A stretch of DNA of 64,000 nucleotides from Clostridia bacterium (GTDB taxonomy: Bacteria; Bacillota; Clostridia; TANB77; CAG-508), in the NCBI GenBank assembly GCA_017934475.1, contig JAGBJN010000007.1:11776-75775 (forward strand). The letters run 5' to 3'. Below the pieces are notes generated by a model. It was given only the letters and a program-made list of their open reading frames with translations, had not been told where the DNA came from and searched no databases. A program made the translations under genes and the position numbers. Shown here piece by piece: positions 1 to 20,818 of the stretch (its first letter is position 1; every line of letters begins with the position of its first letter).

Positions 1-3
1 TAG

Positions 4-2302: not shown

Positions 2303-2339
2303 AATATAGGACATCTTAAATGAAAGAAGAGTAATATAA

Positions 2340-3390: not shown

Positions 3391-3393
3391 ATA

Positions 3394-3690: not shown

Positions 3691-3717
3691 TGATTTATCA
3701 TTAGGATTGGAGAAAAA

Positions 3718-4146: not shown

Positions 4147-4175
4147 AAAATGAATAAAGGAGCATATTCTATAAA

Positions 4176-4754
4176 ATGAAAAATATAGATTTTGATGAAA
4201 TAGAGATTAAATATAAAGGTTTGATTGATATTGCTAAAAAAAATATGAGCAGCATTAATGATTTTGTACATGATGAAAATCACATGTATGATGTTGTTCA
4301 TTATACAAAAGAATTAATAAAAAGTATAAATGAAGAAGTTAATATAGATGCATGTATAATAAGTGCATATTGGCATGATGTTGGTAGAACCAAAATAAAT
4401 GAAGGACATGAAAAGTTATCTGCTGAAATGTTAAAAGAAGAAATGAAGAAACAAGGATATGATAATAATCTAATAAATAAATGTTATGAAGCAATTGAGT
4501 ATCATAAATGGAGTATGCAACCTAAAACTATCGAAGGGTTAATAGTTAAAGATGCTGATAAATTAGCTTGGCTAGGCATGGGAAGATGGAATGCTTGTAT
4601 TAACAATAATCAAAAGTTAGACAACATACTTGATTTATTGCCTAGACTAAGAAATGAGTTTTTGTATTTTGAAGAATCAAAACTAATATATGATATAGAA
4701 TGTGTAAATTTAATAAAATATTTATATAAGAAATATATTGATAAAATGAAATAA
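4176..4754 (+). CDS. HD-domain phosphohydrolase
   Basis: HDENH..SAYWHDVG..H..IEYH..DADKL. Confidence 0.8.
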   Translation: MKNIDFDEIEIKYKGLIDIAKKNMSSINDFVHDENHMYDVVHYTKELIKSINEEVNIDACIISAYWHDVGRTKINEGHEKLSAEMLKEEMKKQGYDNNLINKCYEAIEYHKWSMQPKTIEGLIVKDADKLAWLGMGRWNACINNNQKLDNILDLLPRLRNEFLYFEESKLIYDIECVNLIKYLYKKYIDKMK

Positions 4755-4818
4755 TGAAGTATATTTAAATGTAATAAAAAAAGAGAAGATTTTTTTATTA
4801 GTAAAAATGCATTTATAG

Positions 4819-4862
4819 AAAGCAAGTGATTTGTTGAAAACCACTTGCTTTTATGTTAAAAT
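4819..4862 (+). promoter_or_regulatory. overlapping intrinsic terminator and sigmaA promoter
   Basis: AAAGCAAGTG/CACTTGCTTT inverted repeat; TTGAAA 4834-39, 17-nt spacer, TGnTAAAAT ending 4862. Confidence 0.6.
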
Positions 4863-4903
4863 ATAGGAAATATTATGTTTTGAAAGAGGCCTAGTGAAAA
4901 TAT

Positions 4904-5263
4904 ATGGAAAATAAAAGAATATTAAGGTTAAAGAGTAAAATATATATTTTAATTATAGTAACTTTTTTAGGTTGTGCATTATTTGTTTTATCAGGCTGTT
5001 CTAGTATTAAATATGAAACTGATAGAGACAAGATTATACAATCACCTGATAATAGCTATTCAATAACTATTAGATATGACTATGTAAGTCGACCAGATAT
5101 TTATAAAGATGGTAAAATAATATTTAAATATGATGGAAGCGGATTTATGGAAAATGTAGATTGGGATGTAGAGTGGTTATCAGAAAAAGATATATTATTA
5201 TATATTAAATCACCACAAAAAGAAAAATATAATAAAGAAAAGTATTATATTACTATTAATTAA
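4904..5263 (+). CDS. putative lipoprotein
   Basis: basic N-terminus, hydrophobic stretch and LSGC lipobox. Confidence 0.6.
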   Translation: MENKRILRLKSKIYILIIVTFLGCALFVLSGCSSIKYETDRDKIIQSPDNSYSITIRYDYVSRPDIYKDGKIIFKYDGSGFMENVDWDVEWLSEKDILLYIKSPQKEKYNKEKYYITIN

Positions 5264-5326
5264 TGGATGTGGCTAACCAAATAAGTAACTATTTTTAGAA
5301 AATATTAAATAGAAAGAAGAAATATA

Positions 5327-5884
5327 ATGATAGATGTTATTGAAATAACTATAGAAGAATTTGAAAATGATATTTATGATAAATATATAGAATTATTTCC
5401 TGAAGAAGAACAAAGAGAATGGAATAAAATTGTCAAAACATCCAAAAAGGGAATAGAAAAGTTCTATAAAATTATCTACGAAAACAAGACTATTGGATTT
5501 TTCTTACTTGAAAAAATAAATGATGATTATCCTTTTTACATAGACTATTTTTCTATTTATAGGGAATACCAAAATCAAGGATATGGAACTAAAGCTATAA
5601 AAGTTTTATTAAGTAAAATTATAAATAAAAAGGGATTAATTGCTGAAATAGAAACAGAAAGTAAAGATAATCCTATTACTATTAAAAGATTCGAATTTTA
5701 TAAAAGATTAGGATTTAAAAAAATTAAATCAGAATATTTATTATATAATGTTTATTTCACACCAATATTATATAATGATTATAAAGAAATAAATAAAGAA
5801 AAATATGACAAAATATTTTTTGATTATTATGCAATCAATTGTGGGGAAAATGAAGTAAAGCGACATTGTAAAATTATAAAATAA
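5327..5884 (+). CDS. GNAT N-acetyltransferase
   Basis: YIDYFSI..YQNQGYGTK..RFEFYKRLGF. Confidence 0.8.
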   Translation: MIDVIEITIEEFENDIYDKYIELFPEEEQREWNKIVKTSKKGIEKFYKIIYENKTIGFFLLEKINDDYPFYIDYFSIYREYQNQGYGTKAIKVLLSKIINKKGLIAEIETESKDNPITIKRFEFYKRLGFKKIKSEYLLYNVYFTPILYNDYKEINKEKYDKIFFDYYAINCGENEVKRHCKIIK

Positions 5885-5962
5885 AACAAATATAAATTAT
5901 GATAAGTATTTATAAAAAAGATTTAAGATTATTAATAAACCGAAATAAATAGGAGAAAAAAT

Positions 5963-8380
5963 ATGGAAGATAAAAAAGTATATAAATATGATGCATTTAT
6001 AAGTTATAGACATTGTAAATTAGATAAATTTGTTGCAGAGAATTTACATAGAATTTTAGAGACTTATGAATTGCCTAAAAATATTAAAGAAAAATTAAAT
6101 ATAAAATCAAAAACAATAAGAAGAGTTTTTAGAGACCAAGAAGAACTACCTTTATCAAGTAATTTAGAAGATCCAATTATAAGTGCTCTAGAAGATTCAA
6201 AATATCTTATTGTTGTTTGTTCTCCAAGATTAAAAGACTCTTTATGGTGTAAAAAGGAGATAGAAACATTTAAAAAATTAAGAGGAAGAAAAAACATATT
6301 TTGTGTTCTAATTGAAGGTGAGCCAGAAGACTCTTTCCCAGAAGAAGTACTTTTTGATGAACAAGAAGTAACTCTAGAAAATGGAGAGAAAGCAGTAGAA
6401 AGAATAGAAGTAGAACCATTAGCAGCTGATGTAAGAGGTGAAACTGAAAAAGAAGTTCTTAAAAAAATTAAAGAAGAAAAGCTAAGATTAATAGCACCAA
6501 TGTATGGACTAGATTATGATGACTTAAGACAAAGACACAAATTAAGAAGACAAAAAAGAATATTAAATATTTCAATTATTACTGCAATAGCATGTTCTAT
6601 TTTTGCTATATATTCTTTAATAATGCTTATCAAAATAAATAGCCAACAAGATATATTAAAACATCATCAAGCATTAACACTTGCTTCTAAAGCAAATGAA
6701 TATATAAAAGAAGATAATAGATATGAAGCAGTAAAAAATGCGTACCAAGCACTTGTGGAATTTGAAGGAGTTAAAATGCCTTATACTCCAGAAGCGGAAT
6801 ATGCTTTATCAGAAAGTTTAGGAATATATGATATAGGTGCTTCATATAAAGCTGTATCACAAATAAATACCAAAGGAGTTGTTGATTTTGTAAAATCAAG
6901 TCCAAATGGTAAATATGCAGCAGTATATGATGAATCAGAGGAAATAACATTATTTGATACAAATACATTAAATATTATTTTAAAATATAATATAAATAAT
7001 ACGTATACAAATGATAAAATGTTTGGATTTGTAGGTAATGATATATTTGCCTTTATTAATAAAGATAAAAATATAAGTTTAGTTAAAACTGAAACAGGAG
7101 AACTATATACAGAGATAAATAATGAAGGAAGAGGCTTTATTTCATTAAGATGTAGTACAAATGGAGAATATTTAGCATATACAGATTATGAAAAAGTTTA
7201 TATTTATGATGTTAAAGAAAATAAGCAAATAGGTAGTATATCTGAAGAGGACAATTTCTTAAAAGATATATATTTTTCAGAAGATTGTAATTATGTGTTT
7301 GCTGCAACACTAAAAGAAAATTATGATATATATAAAGAAGATAGCATAACTATACATGTTATTGATGCAAAAGAAGGAAAAGAAATAAATAGTATTGATT
7401 TAACAGCAAGTGCCTTTTCAGGGGTAGTAACTAAAGATAATAATGCATACATCCTATTAAATAACAGAGTTGATACAGATGTAAGTATTGTTGTACTATC
7501 ATATGACTATATTAATGGAAATATTAATTGGACAAAGATTATTGAAAAGTCTTGGGGAAAGTTTATAACAAGATCATATGCTGAAAGCACAAATAATATT
7601 GCAATAGTAAACCAAGACAATGTAAATATATTAAATGCTGATAATGGAGAAATAGAAACTACATTTAACACAAGTAGTGAAATTTTGACTATATATACAT
7701 TTACAACTAGTGACTTATATATAACAGTATCAAGTGATGGATCTGTAGATTACATGGATGTAGAAAATAAAAATACTATTGAATATGATGGAAAATATGA
7801 GCTTAATTTAAATGAATATATAGATGTAGAAAAAACAGAAAATGGATTAATATTATTACCATATAATGAAAATAGATTAATAATATATGATGAAAAAGCT
7901 AATAAAGATGCAAAATTAGAAGATATAAGTCTTGATTATCCAAAAAAAGATAATGTTTCAGTTACAGAACAAAAACAGTTAATTGAAGATTATGATATTA
8001 TAAATAAAAATTTAATTAGTAATATTATTTATGATCAAGATAAGAAATTAATATTTGTAAATTATAAAAATGAAGATATTGCAATATATAATGTTGAAAC
8101 AAAAGAACTAATAAAATTATTAAACAATGTAGGAAAGATAAATCATTATTTTGGTAAAGACAAAAATGATAGAATTTATATAGGAGATATATCAGATACA
8201 TATATTCTAGATAAAGATTTCAATAAAGTTGGACATATAAAAAGTTTAAGAAAGTTAGAACAAGATAAAGTTATAATTGCAAATAATAGTAAATTTTATT
8301 CTTTAAAGATATATAATCTAAATGAACTATTAAATGAGGCAAAAGAACTAATTAATAACAAAAATAATGATAATAACTAA
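5963..8380 (+). CDS. TIR domain - transmembrane helix - beta-propeller-like protein
   Basis: YDAFISYRH..VFRD..ALEDSKYLIVVCSP..SLWCKKEI (TIR_2 with Glu); hydrophobic helix at about aa 200-222; WD40-like strands (SPNGKYA, STNGEYLA, FSEDCNYVF). Confidence 0.8.
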   Translation: MEDKKVYKYDAFISYRHCKLDKFVAENLHRILETYELPKNIKEKLNIKSKTIRRVFRDQEELPLSSNLEDPIISALEDSKYLIVVCSPRLKDSLWCKKEIETFKKLRGRKNIFCVLIEGEPEDSFPEEVLFDEQEVTLENGEKAVERIEVEPLAADVRGETEKEVLKKIKEEKLRLIAPMYGLDYDDLRQRHKLRRQKRILNISIITAIACSIFAIYSLIMLIKINSQQDILKHHQALTLASKANEYIKEDNRYEAVKNAYQALVEFEGVKMPYTPEAEYALSESLGIYDIGASYKAVSQINTKGVVDFVKSSPNGKYAAVYDESEEITLFDTNTLNIILKYNINNTYTNDKMFGFVGNDIFAFINKDKNISLVKTETGELYTEINNEGRGFISLRCSTNGEYLAYTDYEKVYIYDVKENKQIGSISEEDNFLKDIYFSEDCNYVFAATLKENYDIYKEDSITIHVIDAKEGKEINSIDLTASAFSGVVTKDNNAYILLNNRVDTDVSIVVLSYDYINGNINWTKIIEKSWGKFITRSYAESTNNIAIVNQDNVNILNADNGEIETTFNTSSEILTIYTFTTSDLYITVSSDGSVDYMDVENKNTIEYDGKYELNLNEYIDVEKTENGLILLPYNENRLIIYDEKANKDAKLEDISLDYPKKDNVSVTEQKQLIEDYDIINKNLISNIIYDQDKKLIFVNYKNEDIAIYNVETKELIKLLNNVGKINHYFGKDKNDRIYIGDISDTYILDKDFNKVGHIKSLRKLEQDKVIIANNSKFYSLKIYNLNELLNEAKELINNKNNDNN

Positions 8381-8452
8381 AAAGTATCAAAAATAACATA
8401 ATATTTGAAACTTAGTAATGATAGTTAAACTTTATAAAAACAGGAGAAATAT

Positions 8453-8518
8453 ATGATAAATGATTTTGATATGCTTATGAAATCATTATCAAATAAAAAA
8501 GGAAAAGAAAATGAATAG
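8453..8518 (+). pseudogene. 21-aa mini-ORF (MINDFDMLMKSLSNKKGKENE) carrying a copy of the RhuM-family gene 3' end
   Basis: 8461-8499 matches 12999-13037 at 38/39 nt in the same reading frame; AGGAG RBS at 8442; overlaps the Nudix ATG at 8511. Confidence 0.6.
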
Positions 8519-9128
8519 TAGGGAAATATTAGAAAAAATAAAAGCACTATCAAAAGAAGAAAAAAGAAAACTTAATTATGATAAATTAAAAGAAATAATG
8601 GAATATATGACTCCAGATGAAATAATAGAATTAAGTAATATAATAGGATATCCAGTATTTACAAGAATGTGTATGGGAGTGTTACAGCATAAATTTGTTT
8701 TATTACAAGATGGAGCTGCTGCAATAATTATTAATAATGAAGGAAAAATATTATTACAAAGTAGAGCAGATAGAGATTTATGGGGATTGCCAGGTGGGTG
8801 TCAGGAACTAGGAGAAAGATTCAAAGACACAATAATTAGAGAAGTCAAAGAAGAGACAAATTTGGATGTTGAAGAAAAAGATTTGGAACTAATTGATATA
8901 GTTTCAGGAAATAGTAGAAGAAATAGTTATCCAAATGGAGATGTTGTAATTAATAATACAGCATTATATTGTATAAGAAAATATTCTGGAGAATTGAGAT
9001 GGGATGAAGAATCAAAAGAGATGAAATTTTTTGATTTAAATAATTTACCTAAAAATCAAAATGATCCAGATTTAATAGAGATATACATGGAATATGAAAA
9101 AAGAAAATCAAAAGATTTTGAAAGATAA
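8511..9128 (+). CDS. Nudix hydrolase
   Basis: Nudix box GGCQELGERFKDTIIREVKEETNL. Confidence 0.85.
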   Translation: MNSREILEKIKALSKEEKRKLNYDKLKEIMEYMTPDEIIELSNIIGYPVFTRMCMGVLQHKFVLLQDGAAAIIINNEGKILLQSRADRDLWGLPGGCQELGERFKDTIIREVKEETNLDVEEKDLELIDIVSGNSRRNSYPNGDVVINNTALYCIRKYSGELRWDEESKEMKFFDLNNLPKNQNDPDLIEIYMEYEKRKSKDFER

Positions 9129-9145
9129 TAACATTAACAGAAAAA

Positions 9146-9280
9146 AAGGAAGTAAGTAATATGGAAGATAAAAAAGAAAAGTTGCCAAGTACAATGATTC
9201 AGTGCGATAAACCAATTTATATAAACATTAACTCAAACCTTTGAAAACACTGGAATTTTTATGTTGAGATTTTTACATTT
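9146..9280 (+). repeat. cassette junction J1 (rbgA-like 5' end | TG 9203-9204 | conserved right arm, type alpha)
   Basis: AAGGAAGT, ATG 9161 MEDKKEKLPSTMIQ-TG|CGATAAACCAATTT..; right arm matches J3 at 65/76 nt. Confidence 0.85.
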
Positions 9281-9328
9281 TTAATAAAAAATAAAATTAA
9301 TAGTTAAAAAAATATAGGAGACTATAAA

Positions 9329-10120
9329 ATGTGGGGAGCAATAATAGGAGATATAGCGGGGTCAATATATGAGTTTAAACAATTAAAAGAAGTAAAATAT
9401 ATAAAGTGTGATGAAATAATTCCAGAAAAAGGTTTTTTTAGTGATGATACAATACTTACAGTTGCAATTGCTAATGCTATTGAAACTGATAGAGATTATG
9501 AAAAATATCTGAAACTATATGCGAAAAAATATGAAAACTATAGACCTGATTTTGAACCATATTTTCGAAGTATTTTTTCACCAGGATTTATAAAATGGGT
9601 AAATGGGCAAAAAGATGGAAATAGCATAGGGAATGGCGCTATGATGAGAATATCACCTGTTGGATATATGTTTGATTCAGAAAAAGAAGTAATCGAAAAT
9701 GTAATACTTGCAACTAAACCATCACATAATTCAGAAGAAGCAATAGAATGTTCAAAAATCATAGCACTTATAATTTATTATGCGAGACAAGGATGGCCAA
9801 AAGATGAAATACTAAAAAAACTTAATATTCAGCTACAATATAAGTCTTTTGAAAAATTCAATGTTACTTGTAAGGAAACTATAGATAATTGTTTATATGC
9901 ATTATTTGCATCTAATAGTTTTGAAGAAAGTATAAAAAGGGTAATATCTTTTGGAGGAGATACAGATACAAATGCTTGTATAGTTGGTTCAATGGCTGAA
10001 GCTATGTATGGAATAAATCCAGTATTAATAGAAGAAGTAAAATTTAAAATACCAAAAGAATTTACAGATATAATAGAAAAAGGATATAAAATAAAAAAGA
10101 TAGAAGATAATGAAAGATAA
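9329..10120 (+). CDS. ADP-ribosylglycohydrolase (DraG/ARH family)
   Basis: GAIIGDIAGS, FSDDT, SIGNGAMMRISP, GGDTDTNACIVG. Confidence 0.9.
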   Translation: MWGAIIGDIAGSIYEFKQLKEVKYIKCDEIIPEKGFFSDDTILTVAIANAIETDRDYEKYLKLYAKKYENYRPDFEPYFRSIFSPGFIKWVNGQKDGNSIGNGAMMRISPVGYMFDSEKEVIENVILATKPSHNSEEAIECSKIIALIIYYARQGWPKDEILKKLNIQLQYKSFEKFNVTCKETIDNCLYALFASNSFEESIKRVISFGGDTDTNACIVGSMAEAMYGINPVLIEEVKFKIPKEFTDIIEKGYKIKKIEDNER

Positions 10121-10130
10121 AAGATAAAAT

Positions 10131-10247
10131 GAAGTGATATAGATGAACGATAATAAAACTAACATTAACTGGGGTATCGGTATTTAAGAAAACCCTGACT
10201 CAATGCATTGAAAATACTTACTTTTTTATGCTTAGATTTTTACACTT
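10131..10247 (+). repeat. cassette junction J2 (TG 10170-10171, right arm type beta)
   Basis: GAAGTGATATAG-ATG 10143 MNDNKTNIN-TG|GGGTATCGGTATTT..; aligns without gaps to the J1, J3 and J4 arms. Confidence 0.9.
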
Positions 10248-10277
10248 TTTTATAAAAAATAAGAGAAAGAGGAAAAA

Positions 10278-11318
10278 ATGAAATATATAGAAAGAACAAG
10301 CAAGTTAATTAAAGATTATTTTAGTATATTATCCCAAAACTATCCAGATTGGCTAGATGAATACATTGAAACAGAAAGAATGTTAAAACAGCAATATATA
10401 AGTGTTACATGTGGTAAGATTTATTCAAAATTATTTAATTATAATGATTATAGCTCATTAGATCATTCAATAGCAGTAGCATTAATAATTTGGAATTTTA
10501 CACATGATAAAAAGCAAACTTTATCAGGATTATTTCATGATATTGCAACACCTGCATTTAAGCATTGTATAGATTTCTTAAATGGTGATTATATGAACCA
10601 AGAATCGACAGAAGAATTGACGAAAACATTAATTAAAGATTCAAAAGACATAATGAAATTACTTGAAAGAGATAATATAGAATTAGATGAAGTTTGTGAC
10701 TATCATATTTATCCAATTGCAGATAATGATACACCAATGCTTTCTGCTGATAGATTAGAATATTCATTATCAAATGATTTAATAGTATTTAAAACAAATA
10801 CACTCGAAGATATTAGAGAAATATATAATGATATAGAAGTTCAAACAAATGAAAATGGAATTATAGAATTAGGTTTCAAAACAAAAAAGATAGCAAGACA
10901 ATTTGTGAAAAATACTTCTAGATTATCAGTAGCTTATCGAGATGATGCAACTAGATTTTATATGCAAGCTATTGCTGATATATTAAGAAAAGTAAGTGAA
11001 GATGGATTAATAAATAAGATAGATTTATACGAATTAAAGGAAAGTGAAGTAATAGATATTATAAAAAAATCAAACTATAGTGAAGCGTTTGAAGAATTAA
11101 TAAATGCAACAAAAGTACATACTTCAACCGAAGAACCAAAAGATGTTTACTATGTTAAGCATGGCGCAAAAGTAAGATATATAGATCCACTATTTAATGG
11201 AAAAAGAATATCTAAAGAATGTAAAATTGCACAAAAAATGATAGAAAAAAATTTATCATATAATATGGACAAGTATGTTTTTTTAGATAAAAGCTTAAAT
11301 ATATTAAATGAAAAATAA
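10278..11318 (+). CDS. HD-domain phosphohydrolase (dNTPase-like superfamily)
   Basis: SSLDHSIAV..GLFHDIATPAFKH..SADRLEY. Confidence 0.8.
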   Translation: MKYIERTSKLIKDYFSILSQNYPDWLDEYIETERMLKQQYISVTCGKIYSKLFNYNDYSSLDHSIAVALIIWNFTHDKKQTLSGLFHDIATPAFKHCIDFLNGDYMNQESTEELTKTLIKDSKDIMKLLERDNIELDEVCDYHIYPIADNDTPMLSADRLEYSLSNDLIVFKTNTLEDIREIYNDIEVQTNENGIIELGFKTKKIARQFVKNTSRLSVAYRDDATRFYMQAIADILRKVSEDGLINKIDLYELKESEVIDIIKKSNYSEAFEELINATKVHTSTEEPKDVYYVKHGAKVRYIDPLFNGKRISKECKIAQKMIEKNLSYNMDKYVFLDKSLNILNEK

Positions 11319-11323
11319 AGCGT

Positions 11324-11440
11324 AAGGAAGTGATATAGATGGAGAATAGTACAAACATTAACTGCGAAAAACCAATTTATAGAAACTTTTACTCAAAGCG
11401 TTGATAATACTGGATTTTTAATATTGAGATTTTTACATTT
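11324..11440 (+). repeat. cassette junction J3 (TG 11363-11364, right arm type alpha)
   Basis: AAGGAAGTGATATAG-ATG 11339 MENSTNIN-TG|CGAAAAACCAATTT.. Confidence 0.9.
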
Positions 11441-11460
11441 TTTATAGAAGGAGAAGAATT

Positions 11461-11898
11461 ATGGAAAATAAATATGAATTTTTTATAGCTGGAAGAAATA
11501 GAAATAAAGAAAATATATTAAAAATATGTGATTTATTTGATAAATATAATATATCTTATTATTGCTTTTTGAAAAATGAAGATAGTTGGGGATATGGAAA
11601 TAAAAATCAAACACAAGAAGAAAAGCAACGAGAATTTGAATCATTAGATTTAAAAAGTGATATTGTATTGAATTTGTTTAATCAAGATTTAGAAGGGGAA
11701 AAGAGTTCAAAAAACTTTTTACTAGTATTACCGGCTGGAAAAGCAGCACATATAGAATCAGGAATAGCATATGGACTAGGAAAAAAATGCTATGCTATTG
11801 GAGAATATGAAGCAACAGATACTTTATATAATATATTTGAAAAAATTTTTGATAATGAAAATCAATTAGAAGAATTTTTAAAAGAGTATAAAGGATAA
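11461..11898 (+). CDS. nucleoside 2-deoxyribosyltransferase-like protein
   Basis: FFIAG..DL..LLVLPAGKAAHIESGIAYGLGK (E-x-G-x-A motif). Confidence 0.6.
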   Translation: MENKYEFFIAGRNRNKENILKICDLFDKYNISYYCFLKNEDSWGYGNKNQTQEEKQREFESLDLKSDIVLNLFNQDLEGEKSSKNFLLVLPAGKAAHIESGIAYGLGKKCYAIGEYEATDTLYNIFEKIFDNENQLEEFLKEYKG

Positions 11899-11912
11899 GC
11901 TTAGATTAGAAT

Positions 11913-12029
11913 AAGGAAGTGATGGAAATGGAGAATAGTACAAACATTAACTGGGGTATCGGCATTTTAGAAAAACCTAGCTAAAAGTATTGGAAACACA
12001 CACTTTCTTAAAAATAGATTATTACATAT
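11913..12029 (+). repeat. cassette junction J4 (TG 11952-11953, right arm type beta)
   Basis: AAGGAAGTGA..ATG 11928 MENSTNIN-TG|GGGTATCGGCATTT..; left 24 nt identical to J3, right arm matches J2 at 56/76 nt. Confidence 0.9.
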
Positions 12030-12057
12030 TTAAGAAAAATATAAAAAGGAGGCAGTT

Positions 12058-13050
12058 ATGGATAATAAAAATGAAGTTTTGATTTATGAAGATAAAGATG
12101 GTATTACAAAAGTAAATGTAACATTCACTGATGAAGATATTTGGCTTACACAAAGTCAATTGGCAGAAATATATAAAACATCTCGTGAAAATATTACAAT
12201 GCATATTTCTAATATTTATAAAGATAATGAATTACCTAAAGATTCAACTTGTAAGAAATTCTTACAAGTTCAAAATGAAGGTGCAAGAAGCGTTAAAAGA
12301 AATATTGACCACTATAATTTAGATATGATAATTGCCTTAGGATATAGAGTTCAATCAGAAATAGCAGTTAGATTTAGAATATGGGCTACTCAAAGATTAC
12401 ACGAATACATACAAAAAGGTTTTACAATGGACGATGAAAGATTAAAACAAGGTGGCAATAGATACTTTAAAGAATTACTACAACGAATTAGAGATATTCG
12501 TTCAAGTGAAAGAAACTTTTATCAACAAGTAACAGATATATATGCAACAAGCATAGATTATGATCCAAGAGCAGATATAACTAAAAAGTTTTTTGCAACA
12601 GTTCAAAACAAACTACACTATGCAGTACATGAACATACAGCAGCAGAATTAATTTATGACAGAGTAGATAATGAAAAAACTTATGTTGGTATGACAAATT
12701 TTAAAGGAGATTATGTTACAATAGATGATGTAAAAATTGCCAAAAACTATTTATCAGAAATTGAATTACAAAGACTAAATTTACTAGTATCACAATTCTT
12801 AGATTTTGCAGAATTACAAGCGTTAGAACAAAGAACAATGAAAATGCAAGATTGGGTAGAAGAATTAGATAATCAAATATTACTTAATAGAAGAAAAATA
12901 TTAGAAGGTAATGGTAAAATATCACATGAAGAGGCAATAGCAAAAGCAGAAAAAGAATTTCAAATATATAGAGAAAGAGAAATGAAAGAATTACAAAGTG
13001 ATTTTGATATGCTTATGAAATCATTACCAAATAAAAATGAAAGTGAGTAA
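12058..13050 (+). CDS. RhuM-family (virulence protein) DNA-binding protein
   Basis: WLTQSQLAEIY..HISNIY..YNLDMIIALGYRV..FRIWAT..KGFTMDDERLK..IRDIRSSE. Confidence 0.85.
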   Translation: MDNKNEVLIYEDKDGITKVNVTFTDEDIWLTQSQLAEIYKTSRENITMHISNIYKDNELPKDSTCKKFLQVQNEGARSVKRNIDHYNLDMIIALGYRVQSEIAVRFRIWATQRLHEYIQKGFTMDDERLKQGGNRYFKELLQRIRDIRSSERNFYQQVTDIYATSIDYDPRADITKKFFATVQNKLHYAVHEHTAAELIYDRVDNEKTYVGMTNFKGDYVTIDDVKIAKNYLSEIELQRLNLLVSQFLDFAELQALEQRTMKMQDWVEELDNQILLNRRKILEGNGKISHEEAIAKAEKEFQIYREREMKELQSDFDMLMKSLPNKNESE

Positions 13051-13059
13051 GAAGTTAAT

Positions 13060-13449
13060 ATGAAAAAAATAATAATTGCTGGTTCTGCAAAGTTTTACAA
13101 AGAAGCACTAGAATTGAAAAAAGAATTAGAAAATATGAACTATAATGTAATAGATTATCCAAGAAATATAAATGCAAACATTGAAGAAGAATATAAACAA
13201 GCATATGAAAGATTTTATGATAGTTTAAATAAAACAGATGATTTAATTTTATTAAATTTAGATAAAAATGGAATAGAAGGTTATATAGGGTATGAATCAT
13301 TTGCAGAATTAAGTAATTTGGTGGTAAAGAAAATACAAGAAGATAATAATCATAAAATATATATCTACAAGATGCCAAGTAAAGAAGTTGGATGTTATGA
13401 TGAAATAAAACATTTCTTAGAACTAGGATATATTGAAATATTTAAATAA
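13060..13449 (+). CDS. hypothetical protein, NDT/flavodoxin-like fold candidate
   Basis: IIIAGS..D.LILLN..GYIGYESFAEL pattern. Confidence 0.45.
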   Translation: MKKIIIAGSAKFYKEALELKKELENMNYNVIDYPRNINANIEEEYKQAYERFYDSLNKTDDLILLNLDKNGIEGYIGYESFAELSNLVVKKIQEDNNHKIYIYKMPSKEVGCYDEIKHFLELGYIEIFK

Positions 13450-13591
13450 AGGAAGTGATAAAATGGCTAACAAAGATAATAATAAAGAAGGGTTTTCTAA
13501 AATGTCGATCAACTGGGATAGTACGAATTATCTAAACACTTCTGAAAAGTATTAGAAAATCAACATTTTTTGAAAATTTTAATCTTCGTGA
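13449..13591 (+). repeat. cassette junction J5 (TG 13514-13515, divergent right arm)
   Basis: AAGGAAGTGA..ATG 13463 MANKDNNKEGFSKMSIN-TG|GGATAG..; AAAGTATTAGAAA in register with J4 AAAGTATTGGAAA. Confidence 0.8.
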
Positions 13592-13641
13592 TTTAATATA
13601 AATTATATAAAATAAATTAGTAATCGAAAAAAGGAGAAGAA

Positions 13642-14181
13642 ATGGATAATTATATAATAATACATGGTAGTTTTGGATCAAAAGACGGAAATTGGTTTCC
13701 ATGGCTAAAAAATGAATTAGAAAAAGATAATAAAGATGTTGTTGTACCACAAATGCCAATTGGAGTAGAAAACCAGAATTTTGAAAATTGGTCCAAAGTG
13801 TTAAATGAATTGAATATAAATCATAATACTACTATAATTGCACATAGTATAGCGCCAATATTTGTATGCAAGTATTTAATTACAAATAAGATTAAAGTTA
13901 AAAAGCTTATATTTGTTTGTGGATTTAATAATTATTTAGGGATAGACAAAGAATTTGATGCAGTTAATGAACCAATGTTTATAGATAATTTTGAAGATAT
14001 AAAAGAATATTGTAACGATATTATTTGCTATTATTCAGATAATGATCCATATGTTAAATTTGAAACAGAAAAAGCATTTGCAGATGCTATTTCAAATAAT
14101 CAGTATGTAATAAAAAATGGTGGACATATAAATACTGAAAGCGGGTATACAAAATTTGAGGAAATATTGAGAGTACTATAG
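13642..14181 (+). CDS. RBBP9/YdeN-family alpha/beta hydrolase
   Basis: IIHG..NWFPWL..IAHSI..SDNDPYV..GGHIN. Confidence 0.85.
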   Translation: MDNYIIIHGSFGSKDGNWFPWLKNELEKDNKDVVVPQMPIGVENQNFENWSKVLNELNINHNTTIIAHSIAPIFVCKYLITNKIKVKKLIFVCGFNNYLGIDKEFDAVNEPMFIDNFEDIKEYCNDIICYYSDNDPYVKFETEKAFADAISNNQYVIKNGGHINTESGYTKFEEILRVL

Positions 14182-14196
14182 AAGGAGGAGAGGTTA

Positions 14197-15021
14197 ATGA
14201 CACTTTTAGCTTCTTGGGCTGCAATTGATACACATGGTACATCATCTGCTTATATTGTTTCTGATAGTAGAATAAGTTGGGGAAATAAAAAAAATTTTGA
14301 TTTTGGGAAAAAAGTATTTGCATCAAAAAAATATCCGGAAATATTTGGATATGCTGGAGATGTTTTATTTCCATCAATAGTCTTATCTCAAATAGTAGAT
14401 ATGATAGATACAGATGTACTATTCAATGAATCTATGAAATGTTCAGAAAAGAATAAGATTGTTTATGAAAAACTTCAGTATTCATTTTCAAAATATCCTG
14501 ATGTATATGGTGATAATCCAATTCAAATTATACATATATCAAGAGATACTATATTTGATAAATATCCAGTTTTTCATCATTATTTATTAACATGGAATAG
14601 AAAATATGGATGGAGCAAAGAAGAAAAAGTGTTTCCAACTAAATCTGGAATTTTGAATGTTTTAGGATCTGGAAAGGAAGAGTTTAATAAAAACTATAAT
14701 GAAAGATATCAACATTGTAGAAACAAATCTACAAGTAGAAATGTTTTTCATTGTTTTATAGATACATTGTATAATATACAGGATACTATGTGCGGAGGGC
14801 CGCCTCAATTGGTAGGAATATACAGAAAACCCAATACAGCTGCACAAAATTATGGAATTGTATATAATCAAAAAAGATTTTTGTTAGGAATGGAAGTTCC
14901 TAAAGAATCTATGTATAATAAAGTTGAATGGCGTAATGAAAATTTTGAATTATGTGATGGAGTATTAAAGAAAAAATTACAAAATGCTTCTAGTCAAAAA
15001 AATTTGATACGTCGAAATTAA
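14197..15021 (+). CDS. hypothetical protein with proteasome-beta/Ntn-hydrolase-like signature
   Basis: N-terminal M-T, SDSR, K..F, GYAG, LGSG, D..CGG motifs in the order seen in HslV, Anbu and proteasome beta subunits. Confidence 0.55.
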   Translation: MTLLASWAAIDTHGTSSAYIVSDSRISWGNKKNFDFGKKVFASKKYPEIFGYAGDVLFPSIVLSQIVDMIDTDVLFNESMKCSEKNKIVYEKLQYSFSKYPDVYGDNPIQIIHISRDTIFDKYPVFHHYLLTWNRKYGWSKEEKVFPTKSGILNVLGSGKEEFNKNYNERYQHCRNKSTSRNVFHCFIDTLYNIQDTMCGGPPQLVGIYRKPNTAAQNYGIVYNQKRFLLGMEVPKESMYNKVEWRNENFELCDGVLKKKLQNASSQKNLIRRN

Positions 15022-15142
15022 TTAAGGCAACTCCCTGGAAGCTATAAAAAGCTGCGAGGTGCTATGTCTATCTGGAGCAAATTGCTCCAGTAGACTACTA
15101 GGGTATTAACATAAAAATAATATAATTAGAAAGAAGGAATAT

Positions 15143-16357
15143 ATGATTAATATAAACAACAAAATTTGGGATAAATTAAGACTTAAAGATGTAGAAAAAT
15201 ATTTAGATACTATAGAAGATGATGAAACATTTTTTATGGAATTTAAGGAAGAAGATATAAGAAATGTACAATTAACAAAAGAAATTTCTGCATTTGCAAA
15301 TTCGTTTGGAGGGTATGTTTTTTTAGGCGTAAACGATTCTAAAAAAATTGTTGGATGTAGTAGCAAGTGGACAGAATTAAGAATAAATACAATAGTATGT
15401 AATGGAATTTCTCCTATTCCACAATTTGATATAAAAAAATTTAAGCTTAAAAATTCAAATACATTATATATTATAAAGGTAGAAGAGGGGGTAAATCCTC
15501 CATATATTACGAATGATGGATATATATATCATAGAGTATCATCTTCATCAGACAGAGTGAAAGATGCAAATACGCTTAATAATTTATACTTGAGAAATCA
15601 GAATAACATAAAAGATGTTGAAAATAAAATATATATTCCAGAAATATCAGGTACAATTCCAAATAATTTGTGCGGTTATGTTGATTTTGGATTTTCTTTA
15701 ATTTCTAAAAATATTGAAAAAACAAAAGAAAAAGTTAGAAAAGCTGATATTGAGAAGATATCAGAAAAATTAAAAGAATATAAACAAAAATATAGTATTT
15801 CAAAAGTAGGATATTCACTATCTATAACTATAGGTGAGCCTATAATGAAAATGGGAGATCAACCAATTTTAACAACTGGAGGACTTTCAAATTTTATGGA
15901 AATACTGCCAGATGGTAGTTTTAGGTGTAGAATAATTATTTGTTCAGAAAATGATAGCAGTATAGCAAATATTTCTTTAATAACTATGATACATTCGTTA
16001 TTTAAAGAAATATATGAAGTAGTATTTGGAAATAATTTTGTTTCGAATTTTATTCAAGCAAAAAAATATGAAAAGCTTACGGTTTTAAAACTGTTTCAAC
16101 CTAAAATAGTAGTAACAGGAGAATCAAAATATGTAGAAAGATTTAACAAGTTATTTAATGATCATATTATAAAATATGGTAATAATATAATTTCTACTAA
16201 TAATAGAATTCCTTTAAATGGGTTTGTTAATATAGATAAAAGCTTGTTTGATTTAAATAAAGTAAAATTTAATAATGATAACTTATATGGCCAATTGTTT
16301 TATACTAGTTATTTTTTACTTGGATATATTGATGATTTTTATATAGATAATGATTAA
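15143..16357 (+). CDS. AlbA_2 (Schlafen-like) domain protein
   Basis: ETFFMEFKE..KEISAFANSFGGYVFLGVND..PPY..YHRV. Confidence 0.8.
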   Translation: MININNKIWDKLRLKDVEKYLDTIEDDETFFMEFKEEDIRNVQLTKEISAFANSFGGYVFLGVNDSKKIVGCSSKWTELRINTIVCNGISPIPQFDIKKFKLKNSNTLYIIKVEEGVNPPYITNDGYIYHRVSSSSDRVKDANTLNNLYLRNQNNIKDVENKIYIPEISGTIPNNLCGYVDFGFSLISKNIEKTKEKVRKADIEKISEKLKEYKQKYSISKVGYSLSITIGEPIMKMGDQPILTTGGLSNFMEILPDGSFRCRIIICSENDSSIANISLITMIHSLFKEIYEVVFGNNFVSNFIQAKKYEKLTVLKLFQPKIVVTGESKYVERFNKLFNDHIIKYGNNIISTNNRIPLNGFVNIDKSLFDLNKVKFNNDNLYGQLFYTSYFLLGYIDDFYIDND

Positions 16358-16366
16358 GGAGTTTAA

Positions 16367-17572
16367 ATGGGATATAATGTAGCAGCATATTTGAGATTAT
16401 CAAAAGAAGATAATGAAAATATGGAATCAAATAGTATAATTAATCAAAGAGAATTAATAGAACAATATATTAGAAGTAAAAGTGATTTACAATTAGTAGA
16501 TTACTATATTGATGATGGGTATAGTGGTACTAATTTTAATAGACCAGGATTTAGAAGATTATTACAAGATATGAAAAATAAAAAGATTAATTGTATAATT
16601 GTAAAAGATTTATCAAGATTTGCAAGAAGTCATATAGAAGCGGATATGTATTTTGAAAATATCTTTCCTGCCTTGAATATTAGATTTATATCTGTGATAG
16701 AAAATATAGATAGTTTTGAAAATCCAGATTCAATGGACAACCTTATTGTTCCATTTAAAAACTTATTAAATGATGCTTATGCAAAAGATATATCTAAAAA
16801 GGTAAGAAGTGCATTATTAACTAAAAGATTAAATGGAGAATTTATTGGAACTTCTGCTACATATGGATATTTAAAAGATCCAAAAGATAAACATAAATTA
16901 ATAATTGATAAAGTTGCGTCAAAATATGTTATTCAAATATTTGATAGTGCGAAGAAAGGAAAAACTGCAAGTGAAATAGCAAATGAGTTAAATAAAAGTG
17001 ATGTATTAACACCATATACATATAAAGTCAAAAATGATAATATTGGAGTAGATAAAAAGTGGAATGCCAAAATGATTAATGTAATACTTCAAAATAGAGT
17101 ATACATTGGCGAATTAATTCAAGGTAAAAAGAAGGTAGAAAATTATCGTACACATAAACTGGTTTCAACCAATAAAGATGAATGGATAATAACTGAAAAT
17201 CACCATGAGCCAATTATATCTAAAGAAGATTTTGATAATGTTCAAGAAATAATTAAAAATAATAAATGTGCTAGAAGTAATAAAGAAAAAGATTTATTTT
17301 ATAGTTTTTTGAAGTGTGCAGATTGTGGAAGTGCATTCACATTAAGAAAAGTTAAAAATTATGAATACTATCATTGTACGTCGTATGTAAGAAATGGCTC
17401 ATGTACAAACCATTCTATAAGAAAAGATAAACTAGTTGGATTAGTAATTGAAGAACTAAATAAAAAGTTTAAAAGAAATAAAATTAATGTTTTAACAAGA
17501 GATATTTTATTAAAAAATATAAATAGTATCATTATATTTCAAAATGGAGAAGTTACAATAAATTTCAAATAA
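16367..17572 (+). CDS. large serine recombinase (resolvase + recombinase + zinc ribbon), short C-terminus
   Basis: AAYLRLS (catalytic Ser12), DDGYSGTNFNRPGF, VKDLSRFAR, YGY, HEPIIS, CADCG..C..C. Confidence 0.95.
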   Translation: MGYNVAAYLRLSKEDNENMESNSIINQRELIEQYIRSKSDLQLVDYYIDDGYSGTNFNRPGFRRLLQDMKNKKINCIIVKDLSRFARSHIEADMYFENIFPALNIRFISVIENIDSFENPDSMDNLIVPFKNLLNDAYAKDISKKVRSALLTKRLNGEFIGTSATYGYLKDPKDKHKLIIDKVASKYVIQIFDSAKKGKTASEIANELNKSDVLTPYTYKVKNDNIGVDKKWNAKMINVILQNRVYIGELIQGKKKVENYRTHKLVSTNKDEWIITENHHEPIISKEDFDNVQEIIKNNKCARSNKEKDLFYSFLKCADCGSAFTLRKVKNYEYYHCTSYVRNGSCTNHSIRKDKLVGLVIEELNKKFKRNKINVLTRDILLKNINSIIIFQNGEVTINFK

Positions 17573-17650
17573 AGGAGTGAATATAGATGGAGAAAGAACA
17601 AGAAAATAGTTATCACAAAATCAACCTTAACTGGTATCCAGGACATATGG
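17572..17650 (+). other. attR-like site: element-supplied rbgA RBS and N-terminus | TG | rbgA body
   Basis: AAGGAGTGAATATAG-ATG MEKEQENSYHKINLN-TG|GTATCCAGGACAT; same layout as the J1-J5 left arms. Confidence 0.75.
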
Positions 17651-18507
17651 CAAAAACTAAAAAACAAATAATAGAAGATTTGAAGTTAATAGATATAGTT
17701 GTAGAAATATTAGATGCAAGAATACCAAAGTCTAGTAGAAATCCTGATTTGGCTGTATGGACAAAAGGAAAGAAAAAGATAATAGTGTTAAATAAATATG
17801 ATTTAGCAGATGAGAAAGAAAATAAAAAATGGATTTCATATTTTCAAAAACAAGGGATGTCTGTTGTACTTACTAATTCTGTTTCAGGTGATGGAATAAA
17901 TAATGTAATAAAAGAAATAGAAAAAGTTGGTGAAGAAAATAAGACAAACTTTGCTCAAAAAGGTAGAACAGGTAGAGCATTAAGAGTAATGGTAACAGGA
18001 ATTCCTAATGTAGGTAAATCTTCTTTTATAAATAGAATAACAAAGAAAACATCAGCTGGTGTTGGAAATAAACCAGGCTTTACAAAACAAAAACAATGGA
18101 TAAGAGTTAATGAAAAGATAGATTTAATGGATACTCCAGGTATTTTATGGCCTAAATTAGAACCAGAAGAAGTTGCGATTAATTTAGCTATAACTGGTAC
18201 AATAAAAGACGAGATAATTGAAAAGATTGAGGTAGCATATTATTTACTAAAATATTTACTAGAAAATAATAGAGAAGAACTTTGCAACAGATATTCTTTA
18301 AAAATAGAAGATATTGATGAAATATTAAGTAATGAGAATCAAATGGAAAATGAAAATATAATGGAAGTATTATATTTAATAGGTAAAAAGAGAGGTGCTC
18401 TTGTATCAGGTGGACAAGTTGATGAAGACAAGGTTGCAAATCTTTTACTAGATGAATTTAGAAGCGGAAAACTTGGAAAAATAACTATTGAGAAAGTTGG
18501 AGATTAA
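17587..18507 (+). CDS. rbgA: ribosome biogenesis GTPase RbgA (YlqF)
   Basis: NWYPGHMAK, DARIP.SSRNP, NKYD, GIPNVGKSS, DTPG. Confidence 0.97.
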   Translation: MEKEQENSYHKINLNWYPGHMAKTKKQIIEDLKLIDIVVEILDARIPKSSRNPDLAVWTKGKKKIIVLNKYDLADEKENKKWISYFQKQGMSVVLTNSVSGDGINNVIKEIEKVGEENKTNFAQKGRTGRALRVMVTGIPNVGKSSFINRITKKTSAGVGNKPGFTKQKQWIRVNEKIDLMDTPGILWPKLEPEEVAINLAITGTIKDEIIEKIEVAYYLLKYLLENNREELCNRYSLKIEDIDEILSNENQMENENIMEVLYLIGKKRGALVSGGQVDEDKVANLLLDEFRSGKLGKITIEKVGD

Positions 18508-18914
18508 TGGAAGAATTAATAGAAAGAAAAAAGGATATATCAGAAGTAAAACTAATGCCACCTCTAGTATGGGCTTATGTTGGTGATAATGTATATGAAT
18601 TATTTATAAGAACATATCTTGTAAATAATTCAAAAATGAATCCACATAAACTACATGTAGAGGCTATTAAGTATGTTAAGGCACAAGCACAAGCAGAAAT
18701 ATTAGAAGAACTACAAGATTTTTTAACTGATGAAGAAAAAGATATAGTAAGAAGAGGAAGAAATGCTGAAAATCATCATCTTCCTAAAAATGCAAATATA
18801 GCAGATTATTCTCATGCAACAGCATTTGAAGCATTAATTGGTTATTTATATTTAACAAAACAAGATGAAAGATTAAAAGAAATATTTAATAAAATAAAGG
18901 AAATAAAAAAATAA
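18507..18914 (+). CDS. mrnC: Mini-ribonuclease III
   Basis: AYVGDNVYELFIR, YVKAQAQA, RRGRN, ATAFEALIGYLY. Confidence 0.93.
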   Translation: MEELIERKKDISEVKLMPPLVWAYVGDNVYELFIRTYLVNNSKMNPHKLHVEAIKYVKAQAQAEILEELQDFLTDEEKDIVRRGRNAENHHLPKNANIADYSHATAFEALIGYLYLTKQDERLKEIFNKIKEIKK

Positions 18915-18915
18915 A

Positions 18916-19668
18916 TTGGAAAGATATATTGATATATATAATAAAACAGAAAACTGCAATATAAAAGCAAAGATGTTCTATGATGATAAAAATAAAATTG
19001 AAAATGTCTTTGTTTTTTGTCATGGATTTTGTAGTGGAAAAGGAAGTAATTCAGTACAAGTAGTTGCAAATCGATTATTAGAATTAGGATATACATCTAT
19101 ATCCTTTGATTTCCCTGCACATATTGATAGTGAACAAAAGGAAGATAAACTAACAGTAAATGTTTGTGTTTCATACATTAATTCTGTTTTAGAATATATA
19201 AAAGAAACATATGGAAATAACGTAAAAATATCATTTTATGCAATAAGTTTTGGAGCATATATTTTAATGAATAAATTAATAGGGGATAATAATGAATATC
19301 AAAATATTATTTTAAGATCACCTGCATTTAATATGAAGGACATTTTAGTAAATTGTCTATTAAAAGACTCTTTTGAGAATTATAAAAATAATGGTATAGC
19401 AAAAGCTGGACATGAAGGAAAAATAGAAGTACCATATTCATTTTATGAAGATTTAATAAAGCATAATTTATATGAAATATATAAAGAAAAAAGAAAAATA
19501 TTAATTATACAAGGAAAACAAGATGATACTGCTTTAATTGAAGATACATATAGATTTATAAGTAATAGGAAAGAAATCGAATTAATTGAATTAGATGGTG
19601 TTAAACATCATATGAGTCCAGAAGAAATAAAAGAATCTGTTGAAATAATGATAAATAAATTAAAGTAA
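18916..19668 (+). CDS. alpha/beta hydrolase
   Basis: FCHGF, FDF.AH, AISFG, IIQG.QD, GVKH; TTG start. Confidence 0.75.
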   Translation: MERYIDIYNKTENCNIKAKMFYDDKNKIENVFVFCHGFCSGKGSNSVQVVANRLLELGYTSISFDFPAHIDSEQKEDKLTVNVCVSYINSVLEYIKETYGNNVKISFYAISFGAYILMNKLIGDNNEYQNIILRSPAFNMKDILVNCLLKDSFENYKNNGIAKAGHEGKIEVPYSFYEDLIKHNLYEIYKEKRKILIIQGKQDDTALIEDTYRFISNRKEIELIELDGVKHHMSPEEIKESVEIMINKLK

Positions 19669-19702
19669 AAAATATGTAAAAAATAGTGAGGTGTTACATA
19701 GT

Positions 19703-20818
19703 ATGGATAATAGAATAAATAAACTAGCTTCAAATTTATTAAAACATTCAGTAAAATTGCAAAAAGGTGAAAACATTTTAATAGAAATGTTAGGAACAGA
19801 TTGTTCAGATTTAGCTGATGAATTAATTAAACAAGCAAAAGAAATTGGAGCAAGCACAGAAATAACAATAACAGATTATAAAAAACTAAAAGAATTTTTA
19901 TTAGTTTGTAGTGAAGAAGAGTTAAAAGAATATGCTGAAACTGATTTAGAAAAGATGAAAAAAGCAGATGCATATATAGGAATTAGATCAGCTAATCCAA
20001 GAGAACTAGATGGTATACCTAAAGAAAAGATGGAAATGTATAATAAACTTTATCAAATGCCAGTACATTTTGAAGAAAGAGTAAAAAATACAAAATGGTG
20101 TATTTTAAGATATCCAAATGAGTGGCTAGCAAAACTTGCTAAAATGAGTTTAGAGGAATTTACTGATTATTTCTATAAAGTATGCACAGTTGATTATGAT
20201 AAAATGGAAAAGGCAATGGATCCTTTAAAAGAATTATTAAGCAATACAAAGAATGTACATATTATAGGACCTGGAACTGATTTAAGGTTTAGTGTTGAAG
20301 GAATACCTGCTGAAAAGTATTATGGAACATTTAATATTCCAGATGGAGAAGTAGCATCATGCCCAACCAAATACAGTGCTAATGGATATATAACATATAA
20401 TACTGAAACAGTATATAATGGGATTACATTTAATAATATTTATTTTGAATTAAAAGACGGGAAAATAATAAAAGCAGAAGCAGGTGAAAAAACAAATGAA
20501 CTAAATGAAATTCTAGATACTGATGAAGGTGCAAGATATATTGGAGAATTTGCATTTGGATTAAATCCATATGTAAAAAACACAATGGGAGATACTCTAT
20601 TTGATGAAAAAGTAGCAGGAAGTTTTCATTTTACACCCGGAACTGCACTAGAAGAAAGTGATAATGGTAATAGATCAAATATTCATTGGGATATAGTTTG
20701 TATACAAACTCCAGAATTTGGTGGAGGAGAAATATACTTTGATGATGTACTAATTAGAAAAGATGGAAGATTTATATTAGAAGAATTAAAAAAATTAAAT
20801 CCAGAAAATTTAATGTAA
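19703..20818 (+). CDS. M29 family aminopeptidase (AmpS-like)
   Basis: NIPDGEV, GEFAFG, TLFDEK..SFH, HWDIV. Confidence 0.9.
   Translation: MDNRINKLASNLLKHSVKLQKGENILIEMLGTDCSDLADELIKQAKEIGASTEITITDYKKLKEFLLVCSEEELKEYAETDLEKMKKADAYIGIRSANPRELDGIPKEKMEMYNKLYQMPVHFEERVKNTKWCILRYPNEWLAKLAKMSLEEFTDYFYKVCTVDYDKMEKAMDPLKELLSNTKNVHIIGPGTDLRFSVEGIPAEKYYGTFNIPDGEVASCPTKYSANGYITYNTETVYNGITFNNIYFELKDGKIIKAEAGEKTNELNEILDTDEGARYIGEFAFGLNPYVKNTMGDTLFDEKVAGSFHFTPGTALEESDNGNRSNIHWDIVCIQTPEFGGGEIYFDDVLIRKDGRFILEELKKLNPENLM

Follow-up and report, generated by a model that had tools for sequence, protein, structure and literature searches.

In-frame leaders along a cassette array at the start of rbgA are probably the ends of mobile units inserted by a serine recombinase

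We analysed a 64,000-nt stretch of DNA from a Clostridia bacterium (assembly GCA_017934475.1, contig JAGBJN010000007.1, positions 11,776–75,775 of the forward strand; hereafter the window), in which rbgA (ylqF), an essential gene for a conserved GTPase of 50S ribosome assembly, lies at the end of an array of small gene cassettes. The original prediction saw in this array a stored library of six alternative RbgA N-termini. Our analysis favours a different origin: the leaders are probably the 3' ends of mobile units that a serine recombinase inserted in succession, through site-specific recombination, at the TG of a Trp codon in rbgA. The array comprised four recombinase-less cassettes of 0.6–1.6 kb and one 4.1-kb element with a large serine recombinase (LSR), arranged head to tail. 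Each unit was laid out as TG, a conserved arm and module of ~90 nt, one or two genes (four in the recombinase element, E), a ribosome-binding site (RBS) with start codon and leader, and the next TG.

Leader positions were recomputed by script and are given, like all positions below, in window coordinates; all parts of the array lie on the + strand. Leader 1 (9161–9204) had an RBS, an ATG at 9161 and a TG at 9203, 42 nt on, and encoded the peptide MEDKKEKLPSTMIQ. Leader 2 (10143–10171; ATG 10143, TG 10170, 27 nt) encoded MNDNKTNIN. Leaders 3 (11339–11364; ATG 11339, TG 11363, 24 nt) and 4 (11928–11953; ATG 11928, TG 11952, 24 nt) both encoded MENSTNIN, the latter with an alternative in-frame ATG at 11922. 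Leader 5 (13463–13515; ATG 13463, TG 13514, 51 nt) encoded MANKDNNKEGFSKMSIN, and leader 6, the live leader of rbgA (17587–17633; ATG 17587, TG 17632, 45 nt), encoded MEKEQENSYHKINLN. The ATG-to-TG distance was divisible by 3 in 6/6 leaders, so that the shared TG supplies codon positions 1–2 of the Trp codon. A Shine-Dalgarno-like box (GGAAGT, GAAGTGA or GGAGTGA) stood 5–9 nt before the ATG in all six, which form one repeat family (D2), and the leader peptides ended in (I/L)(N/Q) just before the TG. From the live leader, the reading frame continued as TGG-TAT-CCA-GGA-CAT-ATG (W-Y-P-G-H-M), the start of the conserved RbgA body.

The recomputed positions bear out the earlier claim that six leaders with RBS and ATG place the TG at codon positions 1–2, and by the same geometry any TG-to-TG excision would leave rbgA in frame. 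The six copies are homologous, so 6/6 in frame is not an independent-trials statistic, and a comparative control was preferred. In place, the five internal leaders read 5–13 codons past their junctions and then stopped, yielding mini-open reading frames (mini-ORFs) of 27, 14, 21, 18 (20 from 11922) and 30 aa; this agrees with the predicted 14–30 aa, and the example given at 10143–10187 was exact. No dinucleotide other than TG was shared by the six junctions, since CG followed it at J1 and J3 and GG or GT at the others.

For the control, an nhmmer junction profile was seeded on the window, iterated and run on the rbgA/LSR strand only; across 114 sequences (1.31 Mb) it found 81 hits, up to six per locus. 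Seven loci were duplicate contigs and were dropped, leaving 72 hits. An open in-frame start with an RBS was present at 56/69 TG-bearing junctions (the window's five included) versus 3/69 and 7/69 in the control frames, and the 56 is a lower bound, since at least one failure (L085) was intact with an RBS variant that the pattern missed. Outside the window, 51 of 64 junction leaders were open, in frame and equipped with an RBS; leaders in other arrays were thus not often out of frame or lacking an RBS. The other 13/69 leaders failed the open-frame test, some of them with stop codons, and the TG was lost in 3/72. Decay at about one fifth of the internal junctions is what selection confined to the terminal copy would produce. 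These counts support the proposal that cassettes are selected to carry a working rbgA start, which every unit carries.

Within the same order, RbgA loci were collected from 30 genomes, of which 28 had a readable N-terminus (L008 was cut by a contig end and L020 was off motif). The sequence after the Trp was nearly fixed across the genus (YPGHMAKTKKQI). Among 22 genus genomes, mean pairwise identity was 0.22 at residues −10 to −3, 0.74 at −2 to −1 and 0.88 from the Trp to +20, with 19 distinct 10-mers before the Trp versus 10 distinct 21-mers after it. Hypervariability before N-W and conservation after it had been predicted, and 22% against 88% identity is that pattern. Leader families crossed bacterial families while the RbgA body tracked phylogeny: ..KSLPSTSINW, for instance, stood before WYPGHMAK as well as WFPGHMVK bodies. 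The families MNENKTNIN, MDMYQKR..KSLPSTSIN and ..NSYHKINLN, found at internal junctions, were the live RbgA N-termini of other genomes. One relative, G002 (locus L042), had an empty site, in which the conserved 158-aa upstream gene was immediately followed by AGGAGG and GTG-AAT-ATT-AAT-TGG-TAT-CC (M-N-I-N-W); in the window genome, 25.2 kb lay between the 158-aa gene and rbgA. The window rbgA (17587–18507) scored 335.6 bits to TIGR03596 (cut-off 208.2) over residues 14–302. Because the YlqF model starts at residue 14 and the empty site has four residues before the Trp, the N-terminal extensions look like dispensable add-ons. The gene was single-copy in the assembly, the second match in G000 being a different GTPase (29% identical).

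Three further observations were made at these loci. The live leader MSNNKKENQELFSKVSIN-EENKTNIN-W of L014/L038 (G017) looks like two in-frame fused leaders, as if the intervening arm and cargo had been lost. In L037 (G009), an LSR-type leader (..NNSYHKINLNW) was live with no LSR present, and a 275-nt spacer with long inverted repeats led to the conserved upstream gene. In many relatives (e.g. G001, G005, G014, G021, G023, G025, G035, G039), the contig ended a few hundred bases or less from rbgA, which fits assembly breaks at the repeated junction modules.

The ~90-nt module (repeat family D1) followed every internal TG, and its first ~22 nt, the right arm, occurred as type A (J1, J3), B (J2, J4) or C (J5). 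Copies of the module were found only at the five window places in the 1.54-Mb assembly (86% complete). Cassette A (9203–10171) consisted of a type-A arm and module to ~9295, an ADP-ribosylglycohydrolase gene (9329–10120) and leader 2. Cassette B (10170–11364) had a type-B arm and module, a gene for an HD-like protein of 346 aa (10278–11318) with homologues in L032 and L033 (61–62% aa identity), and leader 3. Cassette C (11363–11953) had a type-A arm and module, a 145-aa gene (11461–11898) without a match in the family-library scan, and leader 4. Cassette D (11952–13515) had a type-B arm and module, a RhuM-family gene (12058–13050) corresponding to PADLOC candidate PDC-S05 (9.6e-142), a 129-aa gene (13060–13449) and leader 5. 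Element E (13514–17633) contained a type-C arm and module, a serine hydrolase gene (13642–14181), a 274-aa gene (14197–15021), a Schlafen/AlbA_2 gene (15143–16357), the LSR gene (16367–17572) and the live leader. The type-C arm also bounded LSR elements in L032, L033, L059, L069 and L132.

The junctions had weak dyad symmetry about the TG (complementarity 0.395 at shift 0 versus ~0.25 at shifts of 3–4 nt), flanked by GTTTT on the left and AAAAC on the right, each ~20 nt away, and many right arms resembled the rbgA sequence after the TG. From these two features the sites look like one kind, unlike distinct attP and attB. Past ~+25 (to ~+90, e.g. 9228–9295), the module held CTCAAAC, a CTTATAAAATAAG-like palindrome found in many relatives, and TTTTTACA. 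This part may act as a promoter, as an operator or as an accessory site. A consensus scan for a promoter in the module was uninformative (79 sites versus 79.0 expected in AT-rich DNA). RNAalifold returned 0 conserved pairs in 28 module sequences, and no Rfam match was found in 1–20000 at E up to 0.1.

The LSR of element E had 401 aa and was the sole LSR-like gene in the assembly. It contained PF00239 Resolvase (5.9e-22, residues 5–158), PF07508 Recombinase (5.2e-22, 185–299) and PF13408 Zn_ribbon_recom (6.9e-15, 311–365). The catalytic domain with its serine nucleophile was present, S12 being invariant in 19 short LSRs, and the Recombinase and zinc-ribbon domains were C-terminal to it, as in other members of the class. 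Foldseek matched the protein to the SPbeta, Bxb1 and phiC31 integrases (E 1.7e-18 to 1.2e-14), and the solved structure closest to its catalytic domain was TnpX (2mhc_A, E 1.1e-25, 93.5 bits, residues 6–116).

The LSR lacked a coiled-coil motif. Residues 3–365 aligned to 4–372 of a 532-aa paralogue (53%), likewise upstream of an rbgA, and residues 362–401 aligned to 472–512 of that paralogue (32%, E 0.012). The ~100 residues in between (paralogue 373–471), exactly where LSRs carry the coiled-coil, had no counterpart in the 401-aa LSR. In an AlphaFold (AF2) model (mean pLDDT 70.7, C-terminal blocks 84–92), only short helices at 353–367 and 378–384 preceded two final strands. The coiled-coil is the basis of attP/attB selectivity and directionality in serine integrases (PMC5499577, section 17). 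Without it, the LI integrase "becomes promiscuous", with similar PxB (attP × attB) and LxR (attL × attR) activity, according to the same section (PMC5499577, section 17).

The short LSRs were closely linked to rbgA. Among 27 full-length short LSRs (397–419 aa), 22 had a co-oriented rbgA 54–4674 nt downstream, and the remaining 5 reached the end of the sequence within 114–2270 nt. In the window, the LSR stop codon lay 15 nt before the live rbgA ATG. Long LSRs were upstream of rbgA in 6/57 cases (three tandem pairs). In several arrays one to four units lay between the LSR and rbgA, which implies that units also insert between the recombinase and rbgA. Long LSRs in tandem pairs (~550 + 530 aa), ordered like ccrA/ccrB, were seen in L063, L064, L065 and L075; rbgA was directly downstream in L063, L065 and L075, and in L064 the contig ended before any rbgA.

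From this anatomy we propose the following mechanism. Units would insert serially, each at the TG of the Trp codon with which the RbgA body begins. As this site is inside an essential gene, a unit would give a viable insertion only if its left att arm provides an RBS, a start codon and an in-frame leader with (I/L)(N/Q) at its end. Each insertion would strand the previous leader before the right arm of the newcomer, where it becomes a short dead-end ORF. The 401-aa LSR immediately before rbgA, which has lost its coiled-coil, is the probable recombinase. It would also mobilise the recombinase-less cassettes in trans, in the manner of an integron integrase, with the crossover presumably falling exactly at the TG. 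Given a coiled-coil-less LSR and one kind of site, any pair of sites may recombine, inserting circles and deleting the DNA between direct repeats. We would expect such recombination to continue in present-day cells.

Arrangements in other genomes suggest modularity of this sort. Right arms kept their downstream gene while the upstream leaders differed (clusters c5, c12 and c17). Cargo genes of the window recurred in the arrays of other genomes at 83–91% nt identity: the 145-aa gene (p145) was 83% identical in L057, from another family, between the LSR and rbgA; the RhuM gene was 84% identical in L038, directly upstream of rbgA; and the serine hydrolase gene was 91% identical in L059, followed by a leader like leader 1. 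This relative of leader 1 was 81% identical and stood behind a different gene. Assembled contigs from bovine and sheep gut (four other studies), which broke or re-joined at the junctions, were compared at 90% likeness with short sides of 21–41 nt; joints with sides <30 nt were taken as hints only, and thin cover and depth differences were excluded as evidence. A 4122-nt contig (run X7) spanned exactly 13520–17633, corresponding to element E, arm through TG. Another contig joined 10166 to 13511 with 6 letters shared, placing leader 2 before a type-C arm. Other contigs had the LSR leader and TG followed by another arm in place of rbgA, the p129 gene and a different leader before rbgA, or a type-C module before the Nudix gene (run X6).

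Several points weigh against this account. Leaders were only loosely tied to the upstream cargo gene; strict linkage of leader to upstream cargo was rejected as the linkage was weak, which fits a strict TG-to-TG unit less well and implies extra exchange, for example via the shared RBS box. Conservation of the module past ~+25 exceeds the size of an LSR half-site, and some LSR-to-rbgA intervals had no recognisable module. The relatives are not independent samples and the profile was derived from the window, so the junction counts describe one family. No excision product or circle was seen among the assembled contigs, which show the arrangements of other organisms and not activity here. Finally, the engineered coiled-coil-less LI integrase was inefficient between molecules (PMC5499577, section 17), so that cassette insertion by the 401-aa LSR is not assured.

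A more specific version, which we put forward tentatively and rate as less likely than not, is that a natural LSR, now without its coiled-coil, operates a two-way, integron-like gene-capture platform in the start of an essential gene. The cassettes would double as rbgA expression modules that supply the RBS, start, N-terminal peptide and possibly a promoter, and the platform could not be lost without cell death. Shuffling would alter the RbgA N-terminus and perhaps its level, and the leader would be under purifying selection.

The array could also be read as fossil scars, with the cassettes being recombinase elements stripped by decay after accretion, as in cis-mobilizable elements (CIMEs), that no longer move singly, and the array changing only through insertion of whole elements and through deletion. 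Integrated elements do decay to CIMEs and then undergo accretion (PMC5704250, in excerpt), LSR fragments or pseudogenes were present in the arrays of eight relatives (L035, L058, L061, L083, L086, L105, L137, L141), and a remnant of a RhuM-type gene 3' end lay at 8445–8515 in the window. Cassettes A–D, by contrast, had no recombinase remnant and followed a common compact plan in which arm and module precede one or two genes and a leader. Across genomes, arm types went with particular cargo genes, and the same cargo occupied different array positions, the terminal one included, in other genomes and metagenome contigs. We therefore regard this explanation as unlikely.

Still less likely is a functional library, in which rearrangement retunes the RbgA N-terminus or expression (phase- or dosage-like variation) and the mini-ORFs take part in expression. 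Leaders did differ in length (8–17 aa in the window, up to ~30 aa in other loci) and in charge, and there was no terminator-like site in 8300–18000, so rbgA may depend on transcription from the array. In the MDMYQKR..SIN family, variation was concentrated at third codon positions. Its pooled ratio of nonsynonymous to synonymous polymorphism (pN/pS) was 0.48 in frame (0.23 in codons 8–14) versus 0.86 and 1.22 in the shifted frames, a rough, tree-blind estimate from 18 distinct 84-nt leaders of related sequence. This suggests that the MDMYQKR.. leader is translated and mildly constrained. Such constraint is equally expected if a leader often serves as the live RbgA N-terminus, and is not by itself a function for diversity. 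There was no sign that RbgA function varies by leader, the extension looks dispensable from the empty site and the YlqF model, and internal leaders decayed at the rates given above. Translational coupling of mini-ORFs into the next cassette, part of the original prediction, is unlikely: the gap from mini-ORF stop to next start was 56–90 nt in the window, with a median of 93 nt over 51 junctions and ≤10 nt in 1/51. The stored library is likewise not supported as a source of useful diversity, as serial insertion at one site must leave such leaders behind and about one fifth of the internal ones had decayed.

The repeats could also have arisen from the rbgA 5' region by being duplicated or recombined homologously, with no site-specific recombinase. 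This would account for the RBS box common to units and for right arms that resemble rbgA after the TG (e.g. TGGTAT..GACTTATGGAAAAC versus TGGTATCCAGGACATATGGCAAAAAC), and is very improbable given that every breakpoint fell at one dinucleotide, that one array held three unrelated arm types, that the cargo was unrelated and common to several bacterial families, and that the arrays were closely tied to one LSR clade (22/27).

Array features were recognisable only from ~8445 onward. Within the RhuM-type remnant, 58 nt (8458–8515) were 84% identical to 12996–13053, the end of the intact RhuM gene (repeat family D4), and its place upstream of the Nudix gene indicates that the left part of the array has decayed. 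The Nudix hydrolase gene (8511–9128; Pfam NUDIX 5.1e-16, PADLOC candidate PDC-S07 4.4e-11) was the cargo before leader 1. We rejected the possibility that the whole 25.2 kb between the 158-aa gene and rbgA is one array, as the left 16.7 kb had tight spacers, no leaders or modules, and ordinary-looking genes (RsgA, cytidine deaminases, a PALP enzyme and a cation-efflux protein). No further arrays or LSRs were found elsewhere in the 86%-complete assembly.

Other features in and near the array were also recorded. Just upstream, 5963–8380 encoded an 805-aa TIR and WD40/beta-propeller protein with a ThsB-like TIR (3.7e-06) and no PADLOC match; its gene starts MEDKK, with the first 15 nt equal to those of leader 1, which may reflect a fused leader or chance. 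Within element E, a G+C-rich 120-nt spacer between the 274-aa and Schlafen-like genes (15018–15145) was predicted to fold stably (minimum free energy −33.9 kcal/mol, z −3.65), with a strong hairpin, and had no Rfam match. Upstream of the window (contig C9, L066), long spacers of 340 and 483 nt (9827–10166 and 11325–11807 of that contig) flanked a PALP (TrpB-like) gene in a tight co-oriented row.

The array explains the otherwise puzzling hypervariable N-terminus of a conserved GTPase, and a site placed within the opening codons of an essential gene amounts to a built-in check on correct recombination. It also carries a warning for annotation: RbgA start codons and N-termini here are mobile-element sequence. 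If our account is correct, a compact 401-aa LSR without a coiled-coil, acting on ~50-bp sites of one kind, would be of interest to serine-recombinase engineers as a natural equivalent of the promiscuous mutant made by deleting the coiled-coil.

We found no published description of serine-recombinase cassette arrays at rbgA in the literature, subscription-only papers aside, and the array combined features of several known systems. The catalytic domain of the window LSR was closest to TnpX, of the clostridial TnpX/TndX-type LSRs (Tn4451, Tn5397). These enzymes have ~530–710 aa, excise and insert without a known directionality factor, and move transposon-like elements to GA-centred sites. Unlike the window array, their elements are not known to target rbgA or to form cassette arrays. 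Unidirectional attP × attB integrase systems use two distinct site types and a separate recombination directionality factor; the junctions of the array look like one site type.

The staphylococcal cassette chromosome (SCC, SCCmec; Ccr LSRs at the 3' end of rlmH/orfX) is similar in having LSRs, tandem units in a conserved gene and repeats that rebuild the gene end. In both systems, recombinase-less units stand beside a recombinase-bearing unit and cargo is of defence type (for SCC, PMC11470126, in excerpt). The long LSR pairs upstream of rbgA in L063, L065 and L075 recall ccrAB. Unlike SCC, the array sits at the 5' end of its target, so its units supply the RBS, start and N-terminus. The window LSR was single, short and without a coiled-coil, and scored 114 bits to NCBIfam CcrB and 72.7 bits to CcrC against cut-offs of 900. 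Its cassettes were 0.6–1.6 kb with one or two genes, whereas SCC units are tens of kb.

Integrative and conjugative elements (ICEs) of the Tn5253/Tn5252 type in streptococci and enterococci share the target, the rbgA 5' end, and restore the coding sequence; the live window gene was likewise intact and scored as YlqF. In these ICEs a duplication restores the rbgA coding sequence, and the product in E. faecalis is predicted to be modified (PMC8571831; PMC4701971, both in excerpt). The rbgA-inserted ICEs use tyrosine integrases (PMC4701971, in excerpt), and no tyrosine recombinase or conjugation genes were found among the 35 region proteins scanned. They are large and conjugative and usually leave the N-terminus unchanged, in contrast to the LSR, tiny stacked cassettes and hypervariable N-terminus of the array. 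Accretion of CIMEs with ICEs or integrative and mobilizable elements (S. thermophilus ICESt1/3) resembles the array in that A–D were recombinase-less and in tandem with recombinase-bearing E at the same target. In that process, serial insertion at an att site in a gene end gives arrays of recombinase-less elements flanked by att sites; the elements are decayed conjugative or mobilisable ones, most of which use tyrosine integrases and sit at the 3' ends of genes (PMC5704250, in excerpt). The compact, uniform design in the window is different and suggests cassettes, not wrecks.

Integrons (IntI, attI/attC) share the logic of the array but not its chemistry, with co-oriented, mostly single-gene cassettes at one site beside a recombinase, sites of one kind between them, and arrays that occur with and without the recombinase. 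Unlike integrons, the window array had neither a tyrosine recombinase nor a conserved junction hairpin (0 pairs in 28 sequences). Its sites are of the double-strand LSR type with a TG core, and it ends in an essential gene whose start the cassettes replace. Its setting is that of small-genome uncultured gut and rumen Firmicutes, in which we know of no integrons. If our account holds, such arrays would represent a second, mechanistically unrelated route to integron-like arrays, built on a double-strand serine-recombinase site and not on a folded attC.

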